Of a stretch of 43,799 nucleotides of DNA, positions 4,457 to 19,582 are shown piece after piece. The stretch comes from an uncultured bacterium (GTDB lineage: Bacteria; CG03; CAZUQH01): assembly GCA_964622465.1 (NCBI GenBank), contig CAZUQH010000005.1, positions 1 to 43,799 of the forward strand. Reading direction: 5' to 3'. The position numbers and the translations under genes were made by a program. A model generated the notes under the pieces. It did no database searches and was not told the DNA's origin. It worked only from the letters and a program-made list of their open reading frames with translations. Within the stretch, counting starts at the first letter, position 1; each line of letters starts with the position of its first letter.

Positions 4457-7400
4457 TCACCTTACAAGCGGGATTTCCACTTGCTTGCCATATTGGTAGG
4501 TCCCAAGAATTTTTCGCTGGTCATACTGTTGTGGCAATGCAATATCTATTATATTCGGTGCGCTATAGCCCGGCTTTGCGCCACCGAACTGCCATTCAGT
4601 TGCCTGGCTCTGCACAGAGCGGACTTTCCACATACTCGGTGGTGCGTAACCATCCTGACCCATAACAACACAAAGATATCCCGCCTTTGAAGCATCAAAA
4701 CTCACGAGTTGCTTTGGGATGTAGATGTTTACAGTTCTCTCCACCTCGTTAACCTTTACCTGTGGCGCACCTATCTTGACCGGCTCGCCGGAACTGCTGC
4801 CAGCATAAACAGATTGTTCCCACCCATCCACGGTCACAGCGTAGTCCCAGCGAGAACCCTCCTCCACATAAGCTCCCCTGCCAGGCAGGAGTGCTTTCCT
4901 GCCCTTGCCCGGGTCCGAGTCAATGTACACATCTAAAATTTGAAGAGACAATCCAACTGGTGAGTTCCAGGGATTTGTTATACTGCCAAGTCGCACCTGG
5001 AAAATTACATTTTCTTTTGTCGAGTAAACCGAAAAGCGTTGAATGTCAAACGAACCAGGCACAAACACAGCGTTAGATGGATAGACATAGGTTCCGGGAC
5101 CGTAGTCATCACCCGTTGCATCTATGACATCAACGAGTGGCTTATCCAGTCCAAGTTCAGGAACAACAAGTTTCGCTGTCCCGGGCGATGGCAGAGCATC
5201 TATCTTTTCTACACCGCGAAATACGAGGATGTTCGCGCGCAACTCTTCGTGTGAGACGAGTCCGAGAGCAGAAAATGGGATGGAAAATTCCAGAGTCCTG
5301 CCTGAACTTACACAGGAAATGTCAATTTTCTTGCGCTCCCATCTTTCTCCACCGTCTGCAATGTAGAGATTCACCAATGGCGGTCTGAAGGCGGTCACTA
5401 CTACTTCGTGGGACAAACCGTATCCTAACTCAGCGTTTGTAACTTCTTCACGAACGCCAGCTGGTCTAATCGCCGATGGTTCTGGTGTAGGCACAAGATT
5501 AAGTTTTTTTGCGCTCTCGCTTCCAAGAGCAAGAACGACTTTAATATCTTCTGGTTTAACCGGCAAATCCCGCGCAAAATCCGCACGAATGTAGAGGTTC
5601 CTCGTATCGTAGCCATACCAGAACTCGTTAAGCCATTTCTCTCCTGCCTGCATAACTCCACCTGGAACCGCACGATAGCATCCAGCGTTTTCCCATTCTT
5701 TCGCCTCTGCAACGCCATCTACAACCGGAGAGATCTGTCCAACAATCTCTTTTGCCGGAGTCCACGCCCATTGAGAAACAATTGGAACATAGAGCCGAAC
5801 AGGCGCTTCTTCCTCTATTGCGCGATACACTTCAACCAGGAGATTCCTGAACATCATGTCAAATGAGGCATCGTCACCAGAATCCATATCTGCCCCATAC
5901 CACCAGAACCAATCGCTTCCTTCGGCACTGTACATTGCTTCAAATGCGCGCGATAGCCGTGCTGGGTCTTTATCTGGCCGACTGGCATACCTGGCCAGCG
6001 CTTCTCTTGCCTCAGCAAGATACACCCATGCTATATTCTCTTCCCGTTCTCCTATCCAGATATCATAGGTTGCGTTTATCCAGGAGCCAGCCCAGAGTTT
6101 CTGAATTCTTGACCGTGGCTTGTTGTTTAGAAGAAATTCGGAAGGTGTGACTGTTTCAATTGACTTATCCCTGGATAGCATCTGGTAAAGACCGTGCAGA
6201 AATTCTTTGCCATCATTGGGGTAATTCTCCCAGCAGTTCTCGCCGTCAAGTATGACGCTAACCAGAAACGGTCCTTGTTTTCCCTTCAATTGGTCCCTCA
6301 CAAAATGCAAACGGTTTTGAAAATCCGCTACTGCCTGAGCTGCTGGCATCTTTGAATAGTTGAAACCAACTCTGTCACTCAACGCGCGGTCGCGGAATAC
6401 CATCGCGACTTCTTTCTCTCCGTCAGAGACAACATACGGCTGATATAGAACCTCGCCATTGAGTATCCTTCCGAGTGAATCCTTTTTTAATCTCGTATTC
6501 AAGGAGCGCTCAAGAACTTCCTCATCCGAAGCCATCCACCCGACACCTGCTTTTGCTACAATTGGAACTATCTCCTGCGCAACCGAGCCCTCAGCAGGCC
6601 ACATTCCTTGTGGCTTCTTCCCGAAACACTTCATATAGTATGCGATACCTTTTTCCACATGTGCTTCGGCATCTTCCGGGTATGAGAACCGTGTAGTTGG
6701 AAGGTCAATGCCTGGCAGAGCGACCCGTACGAGGTTTGTGTCGTAAATAAGCGGCAGTATAGGATGAGCATACGGGGTAAATGTTACCTCTATCTGTCCA
6801 GCATCCTGAAGTTTACGATGCACGGGGATAACTTCTTTCATTATCTCAAGGTGCATATCAAGTAGCGCTTTTTTGTCGGCTTCAGTGAAGTTGCGACCTT
6901 TTGCAACGAGTGTCCGTGCCGGCTCTTGTCTCTTGAAATCAGGGTCAAGCCATGCGAGATTGAACCACACCTGAAGGTCAACAAAATCCTGAGTTGTAAA
7001 CTTCTCAAGAGCTCTTGAAACAACCTCGGGGCTATAGGAACGACCTCGCTTATCAAGCAGTTCACGATACCGCGGATTTGGGTCAATCAGGTTCGGCCAG
7101 TTTGCGTCAAAAAAACGCTCCAGAATTTTCGCTTTCTCGTCTCTTGTGAGTTCTTTCGCTTGCTTTTCTGAAAGCACCCAGTAAATATCCCGCTTCCCGT
7201 CAAGGAACTCTTCAATCTGTTTCAATAGCGACGGAGTAAGATTGAAGGTGCAGTGAATATCAGGATATTCTTGAAGGATGGCGCACATGTCATAGTAGTC
7301 CTTGACCGAGTGCATTCTCACCCAGGGTTTAGAAAAGTATCCCTGCTCGTCAACCGGGTATATTGGCTGGTGCTGGTGCCAGATAATTGCAAGATAAAGC

Positions 7401-7495
7401 GGGTGTTCCGCTGAATGGATGGCACCGTATGCCGAGACCAAAACCAGAAGACACGCAACGAAAACTAACACACCTGAACATTTTTCAGACAACAT
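4457..7495 (-). CDS. secreted GH57 alpha-amylase/amylopullulanase-like enzyme with glucodextranase-like C-terminal domain
   Basis: GH57 regions IIWHQHQPIY, GQIEVTFTPYAHPILP, GMWPAEGS, ILDGENCWENY and GSDWFWWYG. C-terminal DATGDDYGPGTYVYPSNAVFVPGSFDIQRF...LQILDVYID. Start chosen at ATG 7495 (MLSEKCSGVLVFVACLLVLVSAYGA signal peptide) behind GGGAGG at 7501-7506. The ORF-track start at 7564 adds 23 unlikely residues. Confidence 0.85.
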   Translation of the reverse strand: MLSEKCSGVLVFVACLLVLVSAYGAIHSAEHPLYLAIIWHQHQPIYPVDEQGYFSKPWVRMHSVKDYYDMCAILQEYPDIHCTFNLTPSLLKQIEEFLDGKRDIYWVLSEKQAKELTRDEKAKILERFFDANWPNLIDPNPRYRELLDKRGRSYSPEVVSRALEKFTTQDFVDLQVWFNLAWLDPDFKRQEPARTLVAKGRNFTEADKKALLDMHLEIMKEVIPVHRKLQDAGQIEVTFTPYAHPILPLIYDTNLVRVALPGIDLPTTRFSYPEDAEAHVEKGIAYYMKCFGKKPQGMWPAEGSVAQEIVPIVAKAGVGWMASDEEVLERSLNTRLKKDSLGRILNGEVLYQPYVVSDGEKEVAMVFRDRALSDRVGFNYSKMPAAQAVADFQNRLHFVRDQLKGKQGPFLVSVILDGENCWENYPNDGKEFLHGLYQMLSRDKSIETVTPSEFLLNNKPRSRIQKLWAGSWINATYDIWIGEREENIAWVYLAEAREALARYASRPDKDPARLSRAFEAMYSAEGSDWFWWYGADMDSGDDASFDMMFRNLLVEVYRAIEEEAPVRLYVPIVSQWAWTPAKEIVGQISPVVDGVAEAKEWENAGCYRAVPGGVMQAGEKWLNEFWYGYDTRNLYIRADFARDLPVKPEDIKVVLALGSESAKKLNLVPTPEPSAIRPAGVREEVTNAELGYGLSHEVVVTAFRPPLVNLYIADGGERWERKKIDISCVSSGRTLEFSIPFSALGLVSHEELRANILVFRGVEKIDALPSPGTAKLVVPELGLDKPLVDVIDATGDDYGPGTYVYPSNAVFVPGSFDIQRFSVYSTKENVIFQVRLGSITNPWNSPVGLSLQILDVYIDSDPGKGRKALLPGRGAYVEEGSRWDYAVTVDGWEQSVYAGSSSGEPVKIGAPQVKVNEVERTVNIYIPKQLVSFDASKAGYLCVVMGQDGYAPPSMWKVRSVQSQATEWQFGGAKPGYSAPNIIDIALPQQYDQRKILGTYQYGKQVEIPLVR

Positions 7496-7530
7496 TAGTT
7501 CCTCCCTCATACGGCCTCTAGATTCAACTG

Positions 7531-7567
7531 GGTCCGCCGCGCCGGCGATGGCACTGCCACGCAAGGT
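7531..7567. repeat. GC-rich palindromic intergenic repeat, copy C (REP-like)
   Basis: GGTCCGCCGCGCCGGCG (7531-7547) contains the hairpin CGCCG-cgc-CGGCG. It is followed by GCCACGCAAGgTA (7556-7567). Both blocks recur at 15150-15166 and 15194-15205. Confidence 0.5.
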
Positions 7568-7588: not shown

Positions 7589-10009
7589 CTATTTAACTGG
7601 CACCAGAATAGCAGCGGAACGAGGTGCAAGCGTCAAAACAATTTCGCCGTTTTCCGTTGGTTGAACCAAAGTACCGGATATTTTATCTTTGAGTAGTTCC
7701 GGCGAGCCCAGGCCATCCGGGATTTCTATCTTCCGGTCCTCACTCACATCGGATACATTCATACAAACAAGAGCAAAATCCTGAAAATAACATGATGCGA
7801 AAGCAATTGTAGCAGGCGTAACATCAAGCACTCGCGTTATCCCATACCGAAGAGATGGCAGTTCTTTGCGGATGGATATAAGCCGCGCAAGATATTCGGA
7901 AAATTCTCTTTCTTGCTCAGTAACCTGCTCTCCAAATTTCATCATTCGCCTGTTGTCAGGGTCCCCCGCTCCTGAAAGACCAATCTCGTCACCGTAATAG
8001 ATGGTCGGCACGCCACGTATGCTCATTATCAATGTGAATGCGAGTTTTATCCGGTCGTAGGTGCTCTGGTCATCGATCTGCGGCACTGCCTGAAGGACTT
8101 TGCCGTCTGAAGTAATATCACCATCCGCGTACGCAGCGAAGCGCGGGAAATCGTGGTTTCCGATAAAGACGCCCATAATAGCTGTGGCAGGATACGATTT
8201 CTCGCGCATTTCAAGCGCTTCTGCAAGAGCGGTACAATTTCTGCTCCGCGTTCCGAACACATCTCTTATAACCCAGAAGAGCGGGAAATCAAACTGCCCA
8301 TCAAGCTCGTACTCGCTCACATACTCCATTATTTTCGCTGGAGATGATATTGATTCGCCTACCGTGTAAAATCGCTTGCCCTGCGGAAATTCTACCTCGC
8401 GTCTTATCGCCTGTCTCATCTCCAACCACAGCGAATGAGGCACATGTTTCACTGCGTCAAGACGAAAACCATCTGCGTCTGTCTCCTTTATCCACCACAC
8501 TGCATTTTCAACCATTGCCTTCTGCGCCCCGGCGTTGCCAGCGAAGTCAAAAGATGGCAGAAAAGTGTCAAACCATGTAGTAAGCGGATGTTCATCAAAC
8601 AGCCGTATGTTGAGCCGGCCGTCGGGCAGATTGAGTGGACCGAACCACTCCGGGTGTTCGCGAAACCAGGGGTGGTCTTCGTGTACATGATTCGTAACCA
8701 GGTCAAGAAGTACCCTGATACCGCTTGCGTGCGCAAGTTCAACCATCTCTTTCAGTTGTTCGTTATCTCCGAAATGTTCCTCAACATTAGTGGGACTTAT
8801 GGGCCAGTAACCGTGATAGCCAGTGAACTTTCTCTGTGGGGGAACCGACTCTGTATAAACGATATTTGGATTCTCGTAGACGGGCGTAATCCAGATTGCG
8901 TTTATGCCGAGTTTCTGAAAGTAGCCATCCTCAATTTTCTTTATTATCCCGGCAAAGTCACCGCCTTCGTAGTTGGCGCTTTTCGCAATTGCACGGTCCT
9001 TCAATGGCCTGTCATTTTTCTTGTCGCCATTATGGAAACGGTCAATGAAAAGGAAATACAAGACCGTATCCCGCCAGTCATACGGTGCTGCATCGCCGAG
9101 GAATTCTTCAAAAACTATTGGTTCGGCCGGAATTCCTTTCTTGTCCTGTGCTCCAATCTGGAATACGCACCACCCGGAAGGAACCGTGTCCATCTTAATA
9201 CGAAGCATGTTTGCTTTTTGGTCAACTTTAACACAATCCGCGCCGAGACGCTCGTTATTCAAAAGTACTACTACTGAGTTTTGGTCAATCTGAAAGGCGC
9301 CGGCACCCGGGACAAATTGAATGTCGTATTCCAGTACTTCACCAACCACTCTGTTGACGCCGACAAGCTCTGGCTTCTTGGGCGGAAAGTAGCTCAGAAC
9401 AGAATTGTATCCACCAAAACCGTCTGGTGACTTATCTGGATTTTGTGGGTCTGCAAGCCATCTGCCATCCACCACAAACTTGTACTGATACTTGCCTGGC
9501 TCAAGGTCAACGTTTACCTCATAGGTGCCGTCCCCGTCTTTGTCAAGCAACTGGGTTGCATGCTGATTCCAACCGTTGAAATCACCTGCCACAAACACGC
9601 GCTGGACGGGCTGTCCGGGTCTGAAACGGAAGGTGTGCCCGGTATCTTTCGTCGCCCACAAAAGCAATGTAACAGGACGGCTTTCTCCCTGTGAATTTGA
9701 AATCACAAAATCAACTGTGCGCACACCAGTCCTGTTCTTGTCTATTGTGATGTGTATAGCGTTTTCTCTGTCATCGTAAGTCGCCTTCAGGTCAGGGCTT
9801 GCGGAGGGCGATACTTTGACCTGGAGGCGGGACTGGGGCGCTGTATTGTAAACGAGAGAGTCCAGGTCAACAGTATGGAGTTTTCCTGTTGTGAGTTTCG
9901 CAGGATTTATGGACCATACTTTCAGTTCCGCATGAACACCAGGCGAAAGCACACTGACAAAAAGGACTGTCAGTACAAATATAACAGCACTGCTCCCTTT
10001 CGTTCTCAT
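7589..10009 (-). CDS. secreted GH13 alpha-amylase-family enzyme (neopullulanase/amylase-like) with N-terminal CBM48
   Basis: CBM48 segment VFVAGDFNGWNQHATQLL...GKYQYKFVVDGRWLADPQNP. Canonical GH13 regions VLLDLVTNHV, DGFRLDAVKHV, YTVGESI and FIGNHDFPRF. Start chosen at ATG 10009 (MRTKGSSAVIFVLTVLFVSVLSPGVHA) behind GAGAGGAG. Confidence 0.9.
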   Translation of the reverse strand: MRTKGSSAVIFVLTVLFVSVLSPGVHAELKVWSINPAKLTTGKLHTVDLDSLVYNTAPQSRLQVKVSPSASPDLKATYDDRENAIHITIDKNRTGVRTVDFVISNSQGESRPVTLLLWATKDTGHTFRFRPGQPVQRVFVAGDFNGWNQHATQLLDKDGDGTYEVNVDLEPGKYQYKFVVDGRWLADPQNPDKSPDGFGGYNSVLSYFPPKKPELVGVNRVVGEVLEYDIQFVPGAGAFQIDQNSVVVLLNNERLGADCVKVDQKANMLRIKMDTVPSGWCVFQIGAQDKKGIPAEPIVFEEFLGDAAPYDWRDTVLYFLFIDRFHNGDKKNDRPLKDRAIAKSANYEGGDFAGIIKKIEDGYFQKLGINAIWITPVYENPNIVYTESVPPQRKFTGYHGYWPISPTNVEEHFGDNEQLKEMVELAHASGIRVLLDLVTNHVHEDHPWFREHPEWFGPLNLPDGRLNIRLFDEHPLTTWFDTFLPSFDFAGNAGAQKAMVENAVWWIKETDADGFRLDAVKHVPHSLWLEMRQAIRREVEFPQGKRFYTVGESISSPAKIMEYVSEYELDGQFDFPLFWVIRDVFGTRSRNCTALAEALEMREKSYPATAIMGVFIGNHDFPRFAAYADGDITSDGKVLQAVPQIDDQSTYDRIKLAFTLIMSIRGVPTIYYGDEIGLSGAGDPDNRRMMKFGEQVTEQEREFSEYLARLISIRKELPSLRYGITRVLDVTPATIAFASCYFQDFALVCMNVSDVSEDRKIEIPDGLGSPELLKDKISGTLVQPTENGEIVLTLAPRSAAILVPVK

Positions 10010-10052
10010 CAAGTCAACTCCTCTCTGGATAGCTGCAGGAAAATTTTGGCTC

Positions 10053-10724
10053 TTAATCAACAATAATTACTGAGTTCAGGTCGCCGAAGCCGTCATCTGT
10101 TGTTTCGGGGTTTGACGGGTCCTGCAGCCAATTTCCATCCACGACAAACTTGTACTGATGCCTGCCAGGCGTGATTGGCAATACAATACTGAAAACTCCA
10201 CTGGCATCTTTAGTCATCAAGTTTGCATCCTGACTCCATCCGTTGAAATTACCAGCTACCGCAACTCTGGACGCGTTCGGCGCTTTGTATGAGAACTTTA
10301 TTCCATCCTTGACCTGCTTTGGCGCAAGCGGCGATGTTTTGACGCTTACAACCGAGTTCTCCCCGCCGAATCCATCGGGTGCGGTTGCGGGATTATTCGG
10401 GTCCTTTGCCCAGTTTCCGTCAACAACAAATTTGTATTGGTGTTCGCCTACCCCGAGAGGCACAGTCCCACGCCAGACGCCGTCTTTCCCTTTTGACAGG
10501 GCGAGCGAAGATGCGCTCCAATCGTTGAAGCTACCCGCAAGGTAAACGGACTGACCTGGACCGGCGTATTCAAATACAACTCCTTCACCGGTCACCTTTG
10601 GGCCGCCGACAGCCGCTGTCCCGGCTGGTTTTGGCGCCTGTGGAGCAGTCGCCTTCGGGCCATACACTGCCGCGCAACCTGCACACACGATTGCAGCCAG
10701 AGCAACTACAAACAACCTTCTCAT
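10053..10724 (-). CDS. probable lipoprotein with two tandem CBM48 (AMPK-beta-like glycogen-binding) domains
   Basis: Signal MRRLFVVALAAIVCAGC. Two repeats of the pattern V(Y/A)(L/V)AG(S/N)FN(D/G)WS...G(E/R)HQYKFVVDGNW(A/L)(K/Q)DP(N/S)NP...DGFG. AGGAGG lies 5 nt before the ATG. Confidence 0.8.
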   Translation of the reverse strand: MRRLFVVALAAIVCAGCAAVYGPKATAPQAPKPAGTAAVGGPKVTGEGVVFEYAGPGQSVYLAGSFNDWSASSLALSKGKDGVWRGTVPLGVGEHQYKFVVDGNWAKDPNNPATAPDGFGGENSVVSVKTSPLAPKQVKDGIKFSYKAPNASRVAVAGNFNGWSQDANLMTKDASGVFSIVLPITPGRHQYKFVVDGNWLQDPSNPETTDDGFGDLNSVIIVD

Positions 10725-10750: not shown

Positions 10751-11146
10751 TCACCGCACTATAACAAGCGAATTTATGTTCCCGCGACCGTCATCATAAG
10801 TGTAAGGGTTATTCGGGTCAAGTACCCAGGCAGTGTTGTCAAGCACAAACTTGTACTGGTATCTTCCAGAAGACAGGGGAACAACTGCCTTCCAGATTCC
10901 ATTCTCATCTTGCTTGAGAGTGATAGCCCTGCGCTGACCCGGCTGATACTCCCACCCGTTGAATTCCCCTGCTACATACACACTTCTGGAACCTGGTGAA
11001 TCAAGTTGAAACAGAATGCCACCGGGGACTGGATGCGGTGGTTCCAGACGGTCTTTCACAAACTTGAGAGTCGCGCAACCGGCCACAAGAACCCCGACGA
11101 CAAGCAAGGACAACGGCACTCTCAGCCGGATGTGTCTGGGTTCCAT
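10751..11146 (-). CDS. lipoprotein with a single CBM48-like domain
   Basis: Lipobox LVAGC in MEPRHIRLRVPLSLLVVGVLVAGCATL. Then VYVAGEFNGWEY...GRYQYKFVLDNTAWVLDPNNP. The start at 11146 is preferred for the signal peptide. ATG 11200 is possible and would overlap the upstream gene. Confidence 0.7.
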   Translation of the reverse strand: MEPRHIRLRVPLSLLVVGVLVAGCATLKFVKDRLEPPHPVPGGILFQLDSPGSRSVYVAGEFNGWEYQPGQRRAITLKQDENGIWKAVVPLSSGRYQYKFVLDNTAWVLDPNNPYTYDDGRGNINSLVIVR

Positions 11147-11180: not shown

Positions 11181-12797
11181 TTAAAAGGAAACATGAGCAT
11201 TTATCCCTACTCTGCTGTAATTTTGCAGATTCCGTTCACTGGTTCTGATAGCATCAAGAATACTCACACCGTCTGCTATCTTGACTTGAAAGGAATCATA
11301 TAGAAATTTGTCGCGCATATCCATTTCGTCATCTATTGAGAGCGGTAATGGCGATTTCCCCCAGCCGAGAAGTATTGCTACTGACCGGGCTGGCTGCCAG
11401 CCAATCCCTGCCCAGTGAGAATGGAAGAAATTATTTGAAGCGCTCTCAAACAACGAAAAAGTGCGCGCGTTCCAGAAGATAAAGAAATCACGGAGCAAAC
11501 CAATCCTAAGGTCCGAAACCACCTCAATTGTACTCAGGTCCGGGCCAGAAACTTCATACTGTCCGAACAGCGCGTTCAGTTTCAACTGCACAGGGCCCAA
11601 CGTCCACTTTGTTGTTCCAAGAACCTGTATCGTTTGTCCTGGAGATACAAGCGGAGAAGATGAATCAAAGACCTGGTATGGTAGCCAGAACCGGGCAACC
11701 AATGGGTCAAATGCAGAATCCACTGTGTCCGACTTCTTGTGGCGTAACCAGCTTGCCTCCACTCCTGACTGCACAACTGGCATGGAAAGGGTGAGCCCTG
11801 CGCACGGCCCTTCGTCCCTTGCTTCCCCTTCTCCGAAATACTGCGTCATGTCCCACCAATCCTGGCGCCAGCCAACCTGCCAGGACAAGAGATCTTCCGA
11901 ACCGCGAAATCCAACGATGTTCTTTCGTTCGTCATAAACAGGCCACGATTTGTCGCTGTCTGCATAAGTACCTGCGCCTTCGTTCCAGTGTGTAGTCACG
12001 AGTTCTCTTTTGCCGGCTACATATTCCTCAAAAAAGCGAAAGTGTCCCGGAACCAGGTCCATCTCAAACAATCCACCAGCGAGATAGGAGCAAATGGTTC
12101 CTTCGTACCAGACAGGGTTACCAGTGTCGTTTAACCCTGCTGCTGATTCTGGAGTCGGGAACCAGTTGTTGTCAGGGTTTGAGTAAGGGTACTTTATTCC
12201 ACGGTCTGACCGCATTAACAAGGTTAGCCGGGTTAGTCCCACCTCTCTTGAAGCCCAGCCGACGAATGTATCAACACCAGAATTAAAATTGTCGCAACCA
12301 AAAAATACAATGTTCGTATCCCATGGCATTGTCTGAAAGAGAACACCCTGTGTTCCGAGACCAAAGTTCAGATTGCGGTCAACTGTGTCGTACAACAATA
12401 TCTCTTTCTTCCTCAAGAACATTTCACCACGCATAATATTGAGAGGGTCACAAAGTTGAGTCACTTTCTCGTTTGAATGGAAAAGAAGCGAGAGCCACGG
12501 AAAACTAAAGCGCAGGTGTGCTTTGTCAAGGTCAAGAGCATAGCGGTCTTCGCCCGTATCAAAAGATAAGCGCGCAAATCCGTCCAGAACCTGTGCGAGA
12601 GAAAACCTCATATCCAATCCAAAGTAGTGCCAGGGCGTCTCAAGACGCCATTCCCTGTCTTTTTGCTCAACCCATGTATCAACGCCATACTTTCCTGAAA
12701 TGTTCATTGTTCCGGAATACGGAAATGTGACAGCGCCATACCCATGCGCATACAGGACAAGAAAGTATCCGAATACTGCTACGATTATTCGCCTCAT
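11181..12797 (-). CDS. predicted outer-membrane beta-barrel protein, unassigned family (538 aa)
   Basis: Signal peptide MRRIIVAVFGYFLVLYAHGYGA. No long hydrophobic helices. Aromatic-rich alternating pattern. C-terminal ...GINAHVSF ends in Phe as in BAM substrates. Distant paralog of the next gene. Confidence 0.5.
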   Translation of the reverse strand: MRRIIVAVFGYFLVLYAHGYGAVTFPYSGTMNISGKYGVDTWVEQKDREWRLETPWHYFGLDMRFSLAQVLDGFARLSFDTGEDRYALDLDKAHLRFSFPWLSLLFHSNEKVTQLCDPLNIMRGEMFLRKKEILLYDTVDRNLNFGLGTQGVLFQTMPWDTNIVFFGCDNFNSGVDTFVGWASREVGLTRLTLLMRSDRGIKYPYSNPDNNWFPTPESAAGLNDTGNPVWYEGTICSYLAGGLFEMDLVPGHFRFFEEYVAGKRELVTTHWNEGAGTYADSDKSWPVYDERKNIVGFRGSEDLLSWQVGWRQDWWDMTQYFGEGEARDEGPCAGLTLSMPVVQSGVEASWLRHKKSDTVDSAFDPLVARFWLPYQVFDSSSPLVSPGQTIQVLGTTKWTLGPVQLKLNALFGQYEVSGPDLSTIEVVSDLRIGLLRDFFIFWNARTFSLFESASNNFFHSHWAGIGWQPARSVAILLGWGKSPLPLSIDDEMDMRDKFLYDSFQVKIADGVSILDAIRTSERNLQNYSRVGINAHVSF

Positions 12798-12818
12798 ATC
12801 TCCTCCGCGATTTGACTT

Positions 12819-14246
12819 CTAAAAGTTGATACGGATGAAACTCTTAAGAAGCCCGTTTTGCTCCGCTGACAATGCCTCCGCATCCATATTGCTCCCGAAC
12901 TCAAAGTATGCCTCTATGTTCCACCCAACCATGTATCGCAACTGATAAAAAGAATTGCTCCATATATTTGAACCGACGAGGTCAGCGAGGTGCCAGTAAA
13001 ACCGCCACCTGTCACCAAAGTTTACACCTGTCTCCATGTCAATTGTAAAATACGGTTCACTCGTGCTGGTATATATGTCTTTTACCTTTGCGCGCATCCT
13101 CGCATACGCAAACTGATTTTCACTTGACAGTTCTAACCAGGCAGAACCAGTGGTGGTGGTTCTTTGCTTCACTGTCCAATCGGTTGCAAGTTTTGTTTTC
13201 AAATTTCCAACAAGCTCAGTGTATACTTCTGCGTAATTCCATTCGCGACGCCACTTACTCGCAAAAAAAGAGTCATAATCATTGTTATCTTCGTCGTACG
13301 AACTCACAAAATCGTCTCGCTTGTAAGTCAGGTTAATTGTCTTTTTTGGCACAAGGAAAACCGCCTCAGCATAGTAACCATCCCGGTCAAAATTATGGTC
13401 ATCAAGGTCAAACTTTTTTGAGAGCCGGTCATGAAAGTACTTTCCATAATTGTACCTGTTCCAGGTGAGATATAATGGACCAATGCGCATCCCGCGAAGT
13501 TCCATACACCAGGCGGACGAATCAGTATAGTACTTCTGTTCTCCTTCAAGATCAGAACTGATAGCATACTCTGCTATGAAATTCGCTCCAAGTATTCCAA
13601 GATTCAAATCGCCTGAGAAAACATCGTTCCAGTTTAATCCCCAACCAGAGCCATCGTCCCATTCTTTTCTGAGTGCAGAAAAACCCATCTCAAGCGAGTC
13701 GTCCAGCGGACCTGCCCGCCAGATATTCTTGTTAATTTTCCCTATGTATGCAAACGCAGGTGTAGTGGTGTAGCGGCTCACCACTGCACTGGCATTTGTC
13801 CCTGCAAGGTCGTGCAGGTCATAGCGCAGTGCAAGCGCCTTTGGCCCCCATTGGTCGTCTTTGACTTTGTCCACATCTACAAGTCGTAGAAGCGGAGAGT
13901 TTATCCAGTGACGCTCTTCCCTTGCTGTGAGTAGTAATTCATGGTGCTGCTGCCAGAACCGCGCGTGTGATTGCACAAGCCAGAATTTCGCCTGTGGGTC
14001 GCTTGTATTTGACCACGCCCCGCATTCCGCATACAGGTCCGAACCTTTGACCGGGTCTGACCATAGTTTCAGGTTGAGATGATGCATCGGTTTTGCAATA
14101 TTCCACCTGAAATCACTTGACTCGTAAGATGCTGTCTCCAGTTCGTAGTAACCGCCAACTCCTGTCCCTGCCATCAGAACGCTGGAAGCATAAACCATAG
14201 TGCCGGCAATGATAGAAAAAATAATCGCTCTCTTTGAGCAACACAT
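12819..14246 (-). CDS. predicted outer-membrane beta-barrel protein, unassigned family (475 aa)
   Basis: Signal-like N-terminus MCCSKRAIIFSIIAGTMVYASSVLMA. C-terminal ...LLKSFIRINF. Shares N-terminal blocks with the 538-aa protein (RWNIAKPMHHLNLKL vs WRLETPWHYFGLDM; QSHARFW vs KAHLRFSF). Confidence 0.5.
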   Translation of the reverse strand: MCCSKRAIIFSIIAGTMVYASSVLMAGTGVGGYYELETASYESSDFRWNIAKPMHHLNLKLWSDPVKGSDLYAECGAWSNTSDPQAKFWLVQSHARFWQQHHELLLTAREERHWINSPLLRLVDVDKVKDDQWGPKALALRYDLHDLAGTNASAVVSRYTTTPAFAYIGKINKNIWRAGPLDDSLEMGFSALRKEWDDGSGWGLNWNDVFSGDLNLGILGANFIAEYAISSDLEGEQKYYTDSSAWCMELRGMRIGPLYLTWNRYNYGKYFHDRLSKKFDLDDHNFDRDGYYAEAVFLVPKKTINLTYKRDDFVSSYDEDNNDYDSFFASKWRREWNYAEVYTELVGNLKTKLATDWTVKQRTTTTGSAWLELSSENQFAYARMRAKVKDIYTSTSEPYFTIDMETGVNFGDRWRFYWHLADLVGSNIWSNSFYQLRYMVGWNIEAYFEFGSNMDAEALSAEQNGLLKSFIRINF

Positions 14247-14284: not shown

Positions 14285-15103
14285 CTACAGATGAACAGTT
14301 AACGAACTCATGTAAGTGATGCCAAGTGCTTTATGAATACCAAAGTCAAAACCGAAAGTGAGCATGTTCGCCCGAAACCCGATACCACCAACCAATAACC
14401 CATAATGCACTCCCATTCTCAGTGAAAGGATGTCCTGAAACCATACTTCGCTTAAAAGTGATGAGTTCTTCACAAGGTCGTGCCATCTGCCGTTCATCGT
14501 CCGCACAGCCGCTGACAGCACCACGGGTGGAAAAGGATGACAGTATATCTCACCAAGCAAATCTGCTGAATGAGTAATCCCTGCTCCTCCGGAGAGAAGA
14601 TGCACCGCTGGCGAATTGAGATTAAGCCCTGCAAAGCCAAAAGTAATGAATGTGGCTGGACTGATTCGTACGCCGAGGTCATAGCTCACAACATATTCTG
14701 GTCCCGCATACGCAGGGTCGTCTTCCCGGTAACCGGGAGCGCCTGCGCCAAGAAATTTTACCGCTCCGCCAACCGCTACTATACCAATTGCAAAACTACT
14801 GCCGCAAGCGACCATATCCTCAAAGTACGCACCGCTCATAGTAACACGCTCAAAATTGCATGCGAGAACTTGCCTGCCAAATGGAACACCGACACCAAGC
14901 GATACCTGGTACACGCTGGTCTGGTTGTAAGGCAGTGCACCCACCATATCAACAACCGGTGAAGAAAGAGTCGCAGAACCCGCTGGATTTCCAGGCAAAA
15001 CCCCTTCATTCTCATATTGCGGCAGAACTATCCCAGCAAATAGCAAAACAGGTCTCGCTACTGCCGCAAGCACTACAATGGAAAACAATACTCGCTTAAC
15101 CAT
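14285..15103 (-). CDS. small beta-barrel, PorV/PorQ/PorP-like (weakest of three)
   Basis: Signal peptide MVKRVLFSIVVLAAVARPVLLFAG. C-terminal pattern LSLRMGVHYGLLVGGIGFRANMLTFGFDFG...ITYMSSLTVHL parallels the 304- and 316-aa barrels. The N-terminal hallmark is poorly conserved. Confidence 0.4.
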   Translation of the reverse strand: MVKRVLFSIVVLAAVARPVLLFAGIVLPQYENEGVLPGNPAGSATLSSPVVDMVGALPYNQTSVYQVSLGVGVPFGRQVLACNFERVTMSGAYFEDMVACGSSFAIGIVAVGGAVKFLGAGAPGYREDDPAYAGPEYVVSYDLGVRISPATFITFGFAGLNLNSPAVHLLSGGAGITHSADLLGEIYCHPFPPVVLSAAVRTMNGRWHDLVKNSSLLSEVWFQDILSLRMGVHYGLLVGGIGFRANMLTFGFDFGIHKALGITYMSSLTVHL

Positions 15104-15364: not shown

Positions 15365-16396
15365 TCAGCGTATTAAAGCAAATGGCACGTTCTTGCGCCT
15401 GATTCTATCTGATTCGCCCTTTATTGCAAAAAAGTAAATCCCACCAGGCGCGGTCTTGTTGTTATCATCCAGACCATCCCATACATAGGAAACATGAAAC
15501 TGCTCTGCTCCCGGAAAACTAATTTCTCTGGTTTCAAACTGTTTTACGAGATAGCCGTTGAGGTCGTATATCGCCGCATCAAGCTCGGCCGGTCTGGAGA
15601 CATAGAAGCCGAACTCAATAGTGTCCCCTATACCGTTTCCGTCAGGGGAAAATACGGTGCTGGTGCGGGAAACCTCAGAAATAGAAAATGATATTTCTGC
15701 GTAGGTGTCATCCGGGACGCCATCGTTATCTCTATCTATTATGACTTCTGCGGTTCTGTCCACATTTGGAAGGTACTTGTTCAGAGGAGCGGAATCGCCA
15801 CCAAGTGCCGACTCGTCGCAGAGCGCAGCGACAACCCTTATTTTTGCACCAACAGGAACTTTGCCATTGCCAAGACCATATAGCACATCAAATGGAACTT
15901 TCATCTCACTTCCACCGCTTGTGTAAGAAAAAGAAGTCGCAACCTGCACGCCGTTTGAACCGGTCAAATCCCGGCTTGCCGTAGGTGTAAGTACCTGATA
16001 GAAGTTTCCTTTTGCTCCGTCCCACGACCCGAAGAAAAAATCAATAGCACTCCCATCCCAGAACCGCGCACCTTTCTGCCAGTTATCTATGGAAGTCAGG
16101 TCCGTAGCGCCTTGAGACAATTCAGGGTTCACATCCATATACAGGAGCCACCCGCATCCATCAACAAAACCCTGTATCCCGAGGTAAAGGTTGTTTTGGT
16201 CCCATGTAACATACAACGCATCTATCGCGCCCTTACTCCATTTGCTATCGCCCGCCTCGCCAGCAATGTTCTCGTCAGAACAGAAACTACTAAGGTCACC
16301 ATCTACTTTGATTCCATGATAACTCGCTGACAGGACTGCACCGCCAGAGAAAAGAACGCAAACCGTGATTATCATCCCGAGCCGGGTTCTATTCAT
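15365..16396 (-). CDS. secreted CBM9/DOMON-like sugar-binding protein with FlgD-Ig-like (T9SS-style) C-terminal domain
   Basis: Start chosen at ATG 16396 (MNRTRLGMIITVCVLFSGGAVLSA). N-terminal IKVDGDLSSF...DALYVTWDQNNLYLGIQG. C-terminal VFSPDGNGIGDTIEFGFYV...AAIYDLNGYLVKQFE...YVWDGLDDNNKTAPGGIYFFAIKG...VPFALIR. Confidence 0.65.
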   Translation of the reverse strand: MNRTRLGMIITVCVLFSGGAVLSASYHGIKVDGDLSSFCSDENIAGEAGDSKWSKGAIDALYVTWDQNNLYLGIQGFVDGCGWLLYMDVNPELSQGATDLTSIDNWQKGARFWDGSAIDFFFGSWDGAKGNFYQVLTPTASRDLTGSNGVQVATSFSYTSGGSEMKVPFDVLYGLGNGKVPVGAKIRVVAALCDESALGGDSAPLNKYLPNVDRTAEVIIDRDNDGVPDDTYAEISFSISEVSRTSTVFSPDGNGIGDTIEFGFYVSRPAELDAAIYDLNGYLVKQFETREISFPGAEQFHVSYVWDGLDDNNKTAPGGIYFFAIKGESDRIRRKNVPFALIR

Positions 16397-16451
16397 CCTC
16401 CAGGTACTTCTCCCAACAGTCCGGCCGCACCCGTGCTCGTCACGTCCTTGT

Positions 16452-17723
16452 TCAGCGCTCAACCAGCACCTCTCTTTCAACGCGCCTTGATGCATCATAG
16501 AGCGCCTGATACACGGTTTTCCTTCCACTCAAGCACGCGTACATCTCAGCGTTCACGACCTCTTCAAGCCGGGAATATTCAATTACCGGCGGACGTGCAA
16601 TTGCAGTCGTCATCTGTTTCATAAACACCTCTAGTTCCGGCGATTCCTTGAATTCTACCAGTGGATACGCATTGAGATTTACAGGAATCTGACCGAGTGT
16701 GTTGCACCATTTTGCCTGTATTTCCGGCGAGGTCAGAAACCTCAGGAATTCGTATGCCATCTCAGGATGTTTACACTCCCTGAAGACAACAATGTTGGTA
16801 CCGCCGACATTGGTAGATGTCCCGCGGGGTCCCTCCGGAATTAGAGCAACCCCAAAATCAACCCCTGCGTCTTTAAACTGCTGGACATTCCAGGGACCGC
16901 TAAAAATCATTGAATACATGCCGTTCTTGAATCCGGTATCAGGGTCTATCGCACCTGCCTGCCATGCACCTACCTCAACACGGTGCTTCTGGTAAAGGTC
17001 TACTTTGAGCTGGAACGCAGCGACTCCCTCATCGCTGTCAAGAAGACATTTCGTCCCGTCTTCGCTTAAGAATTTGACGCCAAAAGTGTTGAAGAACGGA
17101 AAAGTCCACCACAGGGAATTGTGCATTGCAAATCCAAAGCGGTCCGTGCGCCCGTCTCTATCAAGGTCACGGGTTAGTTTCTTTGCGACCTGTATGAATT
17201 CATCCCAGTTTCGTGGAGGTACTGTAATTCCTGCTTCCATGAAATGTTTCTTGTTGTAAAACAGCGCGACGCCAGTGGTCTGGTCAGGGATGCCCCAGAT
17301 TCCACCTTTCAATATGTTTGAATTGATAGCAGCCGGGACATACTCGTGAATTATTTTGTCTGCACCAAATTGCTTCAGGTCAATTATGGAATTAGACAGG
17401 ACAAGGCGGGGAACGAAAGCAACATCTACTCTTGCTATGTCAGGCGCTGTATGGGTAACCATTGAGGTCATATATTTCATTTCGTGACCTTCCCACGGCA
17501 CACGCTTCACATGAAGACGAACGCCAGGATTTCTTCTCATAAACTCTTCTGCTATCTTCAGAAACACCTTATGCTCTGCTTCGTTGTAGGTCTCCCATAT
17601 TGTTAGAATAATTTCCTCTGCAGGGGCGCTTGCCTTTTTTTCACCCTTTGCGCAGCCAATCAGCACACACATACCAACTAAGAGCAGCGCAATTTTCTTC
17701 TTGTGTTTCTGAAATTCCAGCAT
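16452..17723 (-). CDS. carbohydrate ABC transporter substrate-binding lipoprotein (family 1; maltodextrin-type inferred from context)
   Basis: Start ATG 17723 behind AAGGAG. Lipobox VLIGC in MLEFQKHKKKIALLLVGMCVLIGCAKG. Typical sugar-SBP layout (LTIWETYNEAEHKVFLKIAEEFMRRNPGVRLHVKRVPW...). Confidence 0.8.
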   Translation of the reverse strand: MLEFQKHKKKIALLLVGMCVLIGCAKGEKKASAPAEEIILTIWETYNEAEHKVFLKIAEEFMRRNPGVRLHVKRVPWEGHEMKYMTSMVTHTAPDIARVDVAFVPRLVLSNSIIDLKQFGADKIIHEYVPAAINSNILKGGIWGIPDQTTGVALFYNKKHFMEAGITVPPRNWDEFIQVAKKLTRDLDRDGRTDRFGFAMHNSLWWTFPFFNTFGVKFLSEDGTKCLLDSDEGVAAFQLKVDLYQKHRVEVGAWQAGAIDPDTGFKNGMYSMIFSGPWNVQQFKDAGVDFGVALIPEGPRGTSTNVGGTNIVVFRECKHPEMAYEFLRFLTSPEIQAKWCNTLGQIPVNLNAYPLVEFKESPELEVFMKQMTTAIARPPVIEYSRLEEVVNAEMYACLSGRKTVYQALYDASRRVEREVLVER

Positions 17724-17725
17724 CT

Positions 17726-18610
17726 TTACTCCTTTAGCGCGCCAACGGTCATGCCCTGAATAAAGAATCTCTGGGCAAATCCAAAGATTATTGCAATCGG
17801 AACAATGGAAAATGCACTCGCAGCCATCAGTTTTGTCCATTCGGTGGTATATTGACCACGAAAGAGCGCAAGACCAACAGGCAATGTCAGAAGAGGTGAA
17901 TCAGGGGTATTTACTACAAGTTGCCACAAGAAGTTATTCCAGTGAAAGAGAAATGTAATCAAAAAGACCGTTGCTATCGCCGGCATAGACAGAGGCACTA
18001 CAAATGTAAAGAATATTCGCCAGTCGCCTGCCCCATCTATTTTCGCCTGTTCAATCACAGAGTCAGGCAAGGTCTCCATATACTGCCTCAACAGGAACAA
18101 TCCCCATACGCTTGCGAGATGTGGAACAAACATTCCCTGATATGTGTTAACCCAGCGAAAAGTACTGACGAGTGCGAACTGCGGTACTAAATAGACCATG
18201 CCTGGCACCATCATTGTTGCAAGAAGAGTCCAGAAAAGTGGTTCTTTGCCGGCAAAATCCTTCTTCGCAAAAACATATGCGCCCATACTGCACATCAATG
18301 CTGTAACTGCACCACCTGCGGTCGCAACTACTAAACTGTTCAGAAAGAACTTTCCGAACGGATAGTCGGGATTTTTCCAGACGGAAGCAAAATTAGAGAA
18401 CAGTGGTTTTGCCCACGAAAAATCAAATGTAAAAGCGTGCCCTTCTTCCTTGAGCGCAACCCACAGCATCCAGAAGAACGGGAACAGCATTGCTACAGCC
18501 ATAATTACAAGGACAACCATGAGCGCTCCGCGGCGGAATCTTCTCTTCAACTCTTCAAGACGGGATTCGTTTATTTCTTCTTCCTCAAGTCCTGGTTCAG
18601 CTCTTTTCAC
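17726..18610 (-). CDS. carbohydrate ABC transporter permease (MalG-like)
   Basis: Six predicted TM segments. EAA-type loop EQAKIDGAGDWRIFFTFVVPLSMPA. Stop TAA lies 2 nt before the SBP ATG. The GTG start at 18610 is uncertain. Confidence 0.85.
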   Translation of the reverse strand: MKRAEPGLEEEEINESRLEELKRRFRRGALMVVLVIMAVAMLFPFFWMLWVALKEEGHAFTFDFSWAKPLFSNFASVWKNPDYPFGKFFLNSLVVATAGGAVTALMCSMGAYVFAKKDFAGKEPLFWTLLATMMVPGMVYLVPQFALVSTFRWVNTYQGMFVPHLASVWGLFLLRQYMETLPDSVIEQAKIDGAGDWRIFFTFVVPLSMPAIATVFLITFLFHWNNFLWQLVVNTPDSPLLTLPVGLALFRGQYTTEWTKLMAASAFSIVPIAIIFGFAQRFFIQGMTVGALKE

Positions 18611-18643
18611 CTTATCATGTTTCCTCGGGCAGTGCCCTGCAAT

Positions 18644-19561
18644 TTATCTTGTCCGCAGTGCGCGTGCATTCGCATAGGAAATCCCGAGCGTGACAAGAAG
18701 CAAAACGAAAGATATGGCTGCTGTGTAACCGTAGCGCATTGTCTGCCAGTTCTCAAAAAGGTAATACCCTGTCACGCGTGTCATTCCCTGAGTTACACCA
18801 CCGACAACTGCATAGGGTCTGCCGCTTGTCATTGCAAAGAATTCAGCAAAAGCATTCAATGCCTGAATCATTCCTGTTATTGACAGGAACAATACTATCG
18901 GTTTAACCAGCGGCAGAGTAATCAGCCAGAATTTCTGTCCAGCGTTTGCACCATCTATATCTGCCGCTTCGTACACGGATGTTGGAATATTTTGTATTGC
19001 TGCAAGGAACAAAATCATCCCGAATCCGAGCCCTTTGAGAACCACTGCGAATGCAACACCGAGCATTGCAGTCCTTGGATTGCCCAGTATGCCTGTCTGC
19101 GAAAAATAAGTTATTCCAAGAGAACTGAGAAACCTGTCAAGAATGCCGTAGTGTGGACTGTATATGAAAACCCAGATAATTCCAACTACAAGCATGTCAA
19201 GAACATTTGGAAGAAAATAGGCGGTTCTAAAGAATTTTACTCCCTGCAGTTTCTGATTCATAACTACTGCGAGCAAAAGAGAACCCAAGACACTGAATGG
19301 AATGCAGAGCGCTGCGTAGTAGAATGTCATTAAAAGTGACCACCAGAAGCGGGGGTCCTGCAATAACTCCAGGTAATTTCCAAAACCAACAAACTTCATT
19401 GTGGTGAAACAGTTAAACAGGTCGGTTGTCCACGATACTCTGTTCACGCTCAGCCACATAGAGTAGAAAATTGGATAGGCAAGGAATATCCCGAAGACAA
19501 TCAAGAAAGGCAAAAGAAATACATACGAAACCATGGTGTTCTGCCGCACAGTTCTTTTCAT
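18644..19561 (-). CDS. carbohydrate ABC transporter permease (MalF-like)
   Basis: EAA-type loop YEAADIDGANAGQKFWLITLPLVKP. ATG 19561 with GGGAG 7 nt upstream is preferred over the GTG at 19582. Confidence 0.85.
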   Translation of the reverse strand: MKRTVRQNTMVSYVFLLPFLIVFGIFLAYPIFYSMWLSVNRVSWTTDLFNCFTTMKFVGFGNYLELLQDPRFWWSLLMTFYYAALCIPFSVLGSLLLAVVMNQKLQGVKFFRTAYFLPNVLDMLVVGIIWVFIYSPHYGILDRFLSSLGITYFSQTGILGNPRTAMLGVAFAVVLKGLGFGMILFLAAIQNIPTSVYEAADIDGANAGQKFWLITLPLVKPIVLFLSITGMIQALNAFAEFFAMTSGRPYAVVGGVTQGMTRVTGYYLFENWQTMRYGYTAAISFVLLLVTLGISYANARALRTR

Positions 19562-19582
19562 AATCACACTCCCGTTATCCAC

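Follow-up and report, generated by a model that had tools for sequence, protein, structure and literature searches.

By what route do fragments of starch or glycogen cross the outer membrane of a bacterium in whose genome a profile search finds no LamB? The question is raised by a contig of 43,799 nucleotides from an uncultured bacterium of the lineage CG03; CAZUQH01 (GCA_964622465.1, CAZUQH010000005.1, positions 1 to 43,799; the whole stretch is hereafter called the window), the minus strand of which is one long alpha-glucan utilisation array. Two adjacent genes in this array encode large beta-barrels of no known family, here called A and B, and as judged from sequence comparisons and predicted structures starch fragments probably use this pair as a new way across the outer membrane. 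That the pair takes part in handling alpha-glucans at the outer membrane is very likely, given the fold, the strict genetic linkage to genes for alpha-glucan use and the glycogen-binding module that is fused to B in most relatives. On the same evidence the odds are put at slightly better than even, about 0.55, that A and B, a surface protein, an anchor barrel and a lipoprotein with a carbohydrate-binding module of family 48 (CBM48) would together form the core of an undescribed, TonB-independent alpha-glucan uptake module. The two barrel genes are:

12819..14246, minus strand: barrel A (P0002), 475 amino acids (aa), a signal peptide followed by a plug-less 24-strand outer-membrane beta-barrel with a C-terminal Phe
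11181..12797, minus strand: barrel B (P0001), 538 aa, a signal peptide followed by a barrel of 22 strands, the last extracellular loop of which contains two helices

The original prediction, made from the DNA letters of the window, had described the two open reading frames exactly as they were found, adjacent and with signal peptides and a C-terminal Phe. Both proteins start with an n-region and a hydrophobic signal peptide, and they end in ..RINF (P0002) and ..HVSF (P0001). The genes are separated by 21 nt, with a GGAGGA ribosome-binding site ahead of P0001. In the database record (P0006, 459 aa) the A protein begins at an internal residue, Met 17; for a normal signal peptide, charged n-region included, translation must begin at the ATG at 14246. 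The N-terminal blocks that had been quoted as shared are all present, RWNIAKPMHHLNLKL and QSHARFW in P0002 and WRLETPWHYFGLDM and KAHLRFSF in P0001. The two sequences alone do not allow paralogy to be judged, since the BLASTP match between A and B is borderline (E 0.039 over 90 aa). P0001 aligns with one P0002 homologue at E 6e-4 over 40 aa, and a five-sequence B profile gave 59 % against the A profile in hhalign. When distant B members were added, the family profiles matched at 95.9 % (E 5e-9, 386 columns), the alignment spanning residues 25-481 of P0001 and 22-452 of P0002 and thus almost the whole barrel. A and B are therefore ancient paralogues, and the paralogy that had been proposed holds. 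The pair is found in a single copy in its own genome.

When it comes to known families, neither P0001 nor P0002 has a match in Pfam or NCBIfam at E<0.1 or among the PDB sequences at E<10. None of the 56 members of the P0002 family matches a plausible Pfam family, nothing was found when the A-family profile was compared with the PDB, and the P0001-family profile matches the PDB only via the CBM48 present in relatives. The A family is rare; a three-sequence P0002 profile gave 77 clusters at E<1e-3 among 1.84 billion representatives clustered at 50 % identity. Its signature consists of ..GYYE.. in the first strand, the loop motif EERHW(I/V)xSPLLxLV and a C-terminal beta-signal, K-x-x-x-K-x-x-F. 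For P0001 a word-index homologue search gave no relatives, neither with the single sequence nor with an alignment. Homologues with 22-27 % identity were found by a six-frame search of related genomes, and the B set was collected from genome searches and from the genes adjoining A-family members. Two A-family proteins, P0010 (698 aa) and P0024 (682 aa), carry N-terminal extensions of about 180-215 aa; the extension of P0010 matches the CsgG (E 1.9e-7), LpoB and TolB_N profiles, and that of P0024 matches nothing.

The AlphaFold (AF2) model of A, built from a 56-sequence alignment, is all-beta with 24 strands, a predicted local distance difference test score (pLDDT) of 91.7 and a predicted template modelling score (pTM) of 0.85. 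The model of B, built from 12 sequences (pLDDT 70.6, pTM 0.66), consists of 22 strands, and its last loop contains two helices. Both predicted structures are thus barrels. The long loops of both models are all found at odd-to-even strand junctions, while the even-to-odd turns are all of five residues or fewer, and this distribution places the termini of A and B in the periplasm, the canonical outer-membrane topology. In both models the mature N-terminus leads directly into strand 1, and since the signal peptide adjoins this strand there is neither a plug nor a TonB box. Together with the lack of sequence matches in Pfam, NCBIfam and the PDB, this bears out the earlier statement that no recognisable family, TonB box, plug or LamB signature is present. 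The Plug profile (PF07715) matches neither A nor B in a search that does find the one true Plug protein of the genome, and for the LamB profile (PF02264) there is no Pfam match to P0001 or P0002 at E<0.1. A long loop, L3, follows after five strands in both proteins (29 aa in P0002, 39 aa in P0001), and it is in L3 that the best-conserved motif of the A family is located (EERHWINSPLLRLVD, residues 110-124). The conservation map of the A family further displays invariant Glu, Arg, Gln and Tyr residues at alternate strand positions, which would be the pattern expected of residues facing the lumen.

A Foldseek comparison with the PDB gave generic large barrels, namely FimD/PapC ushers, TonB-dependent transporters, MOMP, porins and AlgE, all with template modelling (TM) scores of about 0.5 or less and identities below 12 %. 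No confident match to a known outer-membrane protein family that serves other substrates than sugars is found among them. The barrels of the TonB-dependent transporters (PF00593) reach TM scores of 0.4-0.5 against A and B at less than 11 % identity and without any sequence or profile match; B has 22 strands and A 24. The best matches of A are the ushers FimD and PapC (E 1e-9, TMq 0.48-0.52, identity <10 %), which like A are 24-strand barrels. In FimD/PapC an immunoglobulin (Ig)-like beta-sandwich, in size about equal to a CBM48, plugs the lumen, and these pores pass Ig-like domains of that size. This opens for a different explanation, in which A and B would form an usher- or Slam-like platform for translocating proteins or displaying them at the surface, be it the CBM48 lipoproteins of the locus, the CBM48 of B itself, or the enzymes of glycoside hydrolase families 13 and 57 (GH13 and GH57) encoded nearby, which have Sec signals and no type-IX tail. 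Such a platform is judged unlikely. The usher matches have a TM score of merely about 0.5 and less than 10 % identity, and the TonB-dependent transporter barrels score equally well. Unlike the ushers (PF00577), A lacks the usher plug as well as the N-terminal and C-terminal domains, and has no Pfam Usher match; A contains no extra domains, because the barrel uses up all 475 aa. No pilin or chaperone genes are found in the window.

The genomic context of the two barrels points towards alpha-glucans. The pair lies between a small barrel (14285-15103) and the CBM48 lipoproteins, in agreement with the original prediction. The neighbouring genes of the array are, from upstream of A to downstream of B:

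16452..19582, minus strand: MalE-like solute-binding protein and two MalF/G-like permeases of an ATP-binding cassette (ABC) importer (Pfam SBP_bac_8 2.4e-41, BPD_transp_1; NCBIfam MalE and MalG similarity)
15365..16528, minus strand: secreted protein with a type-IX (type B / CHU_C-like) C-terminal sorting domain (Pfam FlgD_ig 4e-5, CHU_C 4.4e-4, both scores below the curated cut-offs)
14285..15103, minus strand: P0003, small outer-membrane barrel of 272 aa immediately upstream of A, of the PorV/PorP/FadL-like class
10751..11146, minus strand: protein C, small lipoprotein with one CBM48 (Pfam AMPK1_CBM 6e-12, CBM_48 3e-8)
10053..10724, minus strand: protein D, lipoprotein with two tandem CBM48 (Pfam AMPK1_CBM 3.5e-36, in two stretches; lipobox CAGC)
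7589..10063, minus strand: GH13 alpha-amylase/cyclomaltodextrinase-like enzyme with an N-terminal CBM48 and a Sec signal (Pfam Alpha-amylase 8.8e-52, AMPK1_CBM 1.1e-12)
4457..7564, minus strand: GH57 enzyme with a C-terminal glucodextranase-type binding module (Pfam Glyco_hydro_57 2.6e-63, Glucodextran_C 7.2e-57)

Giant GH13 and GH57 proteins, as well as two further pairs of a cargo protein and a small barrel, are encoded further upstream in the window. The GH13 and GH57 enzymes have Sec signals and are without a type-IX tail. The locus encodes catabolic functions (GH13, GH57, GDE and an ABC importer), and a Pfam scan of the window gave no glucan synthase or export genes. In relatives a MalK-type ATPase (ABC_tran, OB_MalK and TOBE) is encoded right after the CBM48 lipoproteins (L020:18635-19753, L023:4745-5854, L031:7154-8293); no ABC_tran match was obtained among the window reading frames scanned with Pfam and NCBIfam. 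The protein at 15365..16528 is read from a GTG, and its first approximately 44 residues are not signal-like. The Met at about residue 45 (MNRTRLGMIITVCVLF...) yields a proper signal peptide, and the gene therefore probably starts near 16396.

The same arrangement is found in related loci. The loci compared were those of same-phylum genomes (L020-L023), of a groundwater metagenome-assembled genome (MAG) of Elusimicrobia (L024), L027, those on metagenome contigs (L031-L034), and L035-L041, which are the loci with very distant A-family members. Related records include MAGs labelled Elusimicrobia bacterium, e.g. HGW-Elusimicrobia-2 and CG03_land, while L038 is from assembly GCA_043823125.1 and L036 is a high-GC contig. 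Wherever the flanks can be read, the order is a CHU_C-tailed protein, a small barrel, A, B and a CBM48 lipoprotein of about 130-146 aa, and the usual neighbours of this module are a lipoprotein with two or three CBM48, MalK/F/G/E genes and a gene for a CBM48-GH13 protein. A is followed by B in the window, L020-L024, L027, L031, L032, L035-L038, and L041; L039, too, has a gene directly after A, and L040 stops just after A. Among 26 genomes of the phylum A is present in nine and B in eight of these nine, the exception having A at a contig end. Even at 20-25 % identity the synteny with CBM48, GH13 and MalEFGK genes is kept, and this includes high-GC metagenome contigs and a GenBank assembly. One clade of relatives has, in several genomes and metagenome contigs, a gene of about 224 aa of the IS200/Y1 type (REP-associated tyrosine transposase-like) in a constant position between A and B (L020:14774-15448, L031:3309-3977, L032:3295-4005, L033:1-531, L034:180-848 and L002:250-984). 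This insertion looks fixed and possibly domesticated, and no such gene is found in the window.

Since general porins and the alginate exporter AlgE are also among the Foldseek matches, A and B might be taken for general diffusion or structural proteins of the outer membrane that are found in a starch locus by accident, or for exporters of alpha-glucan. Either is highly improbable when the CBM48/GH13/MalEFGK synteny of every related locus with readable flanks is considered. The locus is moreover entirely catabolic, without genes for glucan synthesis or export, a CBM48 is fused to B, and a family of 77 clusters is very rare, unlike housekeeping porins.

The fusion is found in most relatives. Of 15 loci with a readable N-terminus of B, 13 have a CBM_48/AMPK1_CBM there that is significant by Pfam. 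The two without it are P0001 and the B protein of metagenome locus L034, and in P0001 the alignment displays a clean deletion; because the A-B gap is 21 nt, there is no room for a CBM48 ahead of P0001. Judged from the alignment, the B copy of the window has lost its CBM48 and represents a natural variant. Beyond its CBM48, the B protein P0087 of a distant lineage matches the P0001 family at 98.7 %. The fused modules keep the Trp/Lys/Trp positions (FNxW, YK(F/Y), DGxW) that we take to contact the carbohydrate, as in the CBM of AMPK beta. CsgG, LpoB and TolB_N are periplasmic domain types, and the presence of such a domain on one A-family member, together with the barrel topology, which puts the fused CBM48 at the periplasmic end of strand 1, suggests that this CBM48 acts at the inner mouth of the barrel.

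Separate CBM48 lipoproteins are always found in the module. The reading frame of protein C is open from an ATG at 11200, which would give a 20-nt overlap with P0001, but the start is likely the Met at 11146, because the signal peptide and the lipobox (LVAGC) make sense only there. A C-type lipoprotein of about 140 aa follows B wherever downstream sequence exists. In the eight orthologues aligned the lipobox Cys is invariant and a tether, C-x8-R-x3-P, is conserved across lineages, which suggests that the protein has a fixed docking site. The homologues of protein D in relatives contain two or three CBM48. An invariant tether motif after the Cys, on lipoproteins that are always in the module, would also be in line with the display platform discussed above. 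However, many homologues have a linker of only about 10 residues from the CBM48 to strand 1 of B, and an autotransporter-style passage would need a longer one; moreover, the N-terminal additions found on these barrels are of periplasmic types.

The module also contains genes related to type-IX secretion. The barrels PorV, PorP and PorQ of that system are FadL-like, with about 14 strands and 250-400 aa. Neither P0001 nor P0002 matches the PorV/PorP profiles PF19572 and PF11751, and weak matches are found instead among the neighbouring genes of 272-316 aa. In all loci with upstream sequence a gene of 280-296 aa lies directly upstream of A. The naming of this neighbour as a PorV-like barrel in the original prediction holds in so far as its positional orthologues give weak matches (PorP_SprF 5.8e-4; TraF_2/Toluene_X/FadL/PorV), while P0003 itself has no Pfam match. 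The secreted protein at 15365..16528 is the cargo partner of this small barrel. At the cargo position relatives have CHU_C domains (2.4e-9 and 5.8e-7), elsewhere Glucodextran_C plus CHU_C; in P0004 nothing similar to the Glucodextran_C module of the GH57 enzyme was detected.

As A is always found immediately downstream of the CHU_C cargo and the small barrel, A and B could be a part of the type-IX apparatus itself, serving the cargo protein, whose gene is the second one upstream of A, as anchor or alternative translocon. This seemed to be strengthened by the initial finding that Pfam SprA_N was absent from genomes that carry A and B, as if the pair were a substitute for the type-IX translocon. 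The anti-correlation was rejected as a sensitivity artefact. An SprA-like protein of about 1700 aa is found in 25 of the 26 phylum genomes, including this one, where the reading frame is about 1759 aa (G000:C13:10226-15121, E 8.5e-259 to the homologue in G016). Pfam SprA_N misses this protein in the present genome and in most genomes of family f3, and a survey using Pfam only would thus wrongly score them as being without a type-IX translocon. There are furthermore three cargo/barrel pairs in the window against a single A/B pair, and A and B track the CBM48 genes, not sorting-domain cargo in general. It is thus very unlikely that the pair belongs to the type-IX apparatus.

The genome itself has a small size of 1.3 Mb (95 % complete), and in the collection even its nearest kin share no more than the phylum with it. 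That the array lacks any other outer-membrane sugar channel had been part of the original prediction, and for LamB this is true of the whole genome, the profile search being positive for the E. coli control. The genome does, however, encode one small TonB-dependent receptor, which is its only Plug protein and is found on another contig, and one TonB elsewhere. An inward passage of maltodextrins is favoured by the purely catabolic nature of the locus, by the ABC importer in which it ends, and by a genome without LamB and with one small TonB-dependent receptor. The suggestion of a maltooligosaccharide porin or translocon family gains support as the best available reading of the sequences and models, with the CBM48/GH13/MalEFGK synteny and the CBM48 on B in 13 of 15 loci as its main basis.

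The proposed uptake route would then be as follows. Amylases and binding proteins at the cell surface would cleave starch or glycogen to long maltodextrins, and these would pass the outer membrane through the A and B barrels, possibly acting as a complex, without energy from TonB. Conserved Glu, Arg and aromatic residues would line the passage, and the conserved L3 would narrow it. A CBM48 at the periplasmic mouth, fused to B in most relatives and here carried by separate lipoproteins that are presumably placed at the same side, would capture the incoming chain, which would then be handed to the CBM48-bearing GH13 enzyme, the GH57 enzyme and the MalE-like ABC importer. The CBM48 at the inner mouth may act as a ratchet that captures the chain, or it may be lumenal, like the plug of a TonB-dependent transporter. 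In its strongest form this idea makes the CBM48 a substrate-binding plug or periplasmic ratchet, provided in cis on B in most lineages and in trans by lipoproteins here, so that glycan binding, not the proton-motive force, would both drive and gate uptake. This stronger form is speculative and regarded as quite unlikely.

Several points weigh against the proposed uptake module. Outer-membrane importers of another kind are present in the genome, as the TonB-dependent receptor and the TonB show. Barrels of 22-24 strands, as predicted here, would be far larger than what is normally called porins, and since a plug-less barrel of that size is a very wide hole, some gate must exist. The best Foldseek matches of the A model are protein-translocating ushers, a weak resemblance at a TM score of merely about 0.5, and the P0001 model is of moderate confidence with its pLDDT of 70.6 and 12 sequences. 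A CBM48 facing the periplasm would be unusual, and this placement is deduced from the predicted topology alone. Finally, the module is tied to the type-IX cargo/anchor pair as tightly as to the CBM48 genes, so that a role in surface assembly is conceivable, and the likeness of the small upstream barrel to PorV/PorP/FadL is weak in terms of profile scores.

A review of bacterial glycoside transport from 2026 describes only two outer-membrane routes for glycans, the specific porins of the LamB type and the TonB-dependent transporters of the SusC type (PMC13543919). Like the Bacteroides Sus system, the 'utilisome' of SusC/SusD, SusE, SusF and SusG (PMC13543919), A and B form part of an outer-membrane module in an alpha-glucan locus. 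In both cases a large barrel (22 strands in SusC and in B) is combined with starch-binding beta-sandwich lipoproteins and a surface amylase, and like the Sus system the A/B module would feed periplasmic GH13 enzymes and an inner-membrane importer. The differences are also clear. A and B have no plug domain, no TonB box, no SusD-like lid and no sequence relationship to Sus; they are a pair of paralogues where Sus has a single barrel; a CBM48, fused to the periplasmic N-terminus of the barrel, serves as binding module; and the whole is linked with a type-IX cargo/anchor pair. The likeness to LamB (also ScrY and CymA) with MalE-MalFGK2 would lie in a presumably passive, substrate-specific passage of maltodextrins across the outer membrane, upstream of a MalE-like binding protein and an ABC importer, and in the conserved polar and aromatic residues inside the barrel. 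LamB is, however, an 18-strand trimer and CymA has 14 strands, while A has 24 and B 22, and LamB has no fused carbohydrate-binding module such as that found in relatives of B.

Full-text literature searches gave no published account of such a barrel, whether fused to a CBM48 or encoded in a starch locus; the mentions of CBM48 in Fibrobacter concern GH9 cellulases, not barrels. The family and its architecture are undescribed, while an outer-membrane device for glycan uptake is in itself a known functional kind. New are the homology between A and B, the confident 24-strand model of A and the B variant that lacks CBM48. The family also provides a new barrel scaffold of 22/24 strands that brings its own carbohydrate-binding module, and the A/B pair can be used as a marker for alpha-glucan utilisation loci outside Bacteroidota. 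If the ratchet or plug should prove to be true, it would be a third principle of outer-membrane glycan import beside porins and TonB-dependent transporters. The pair is a candidate explanation for how uncultured bacteria of this type take up long alpha-glucan chains, and the A/B family would then be a third outer-membrane solution for glycans, found in several poorly known, uncultured starch and glycogen specialists with small genomes.

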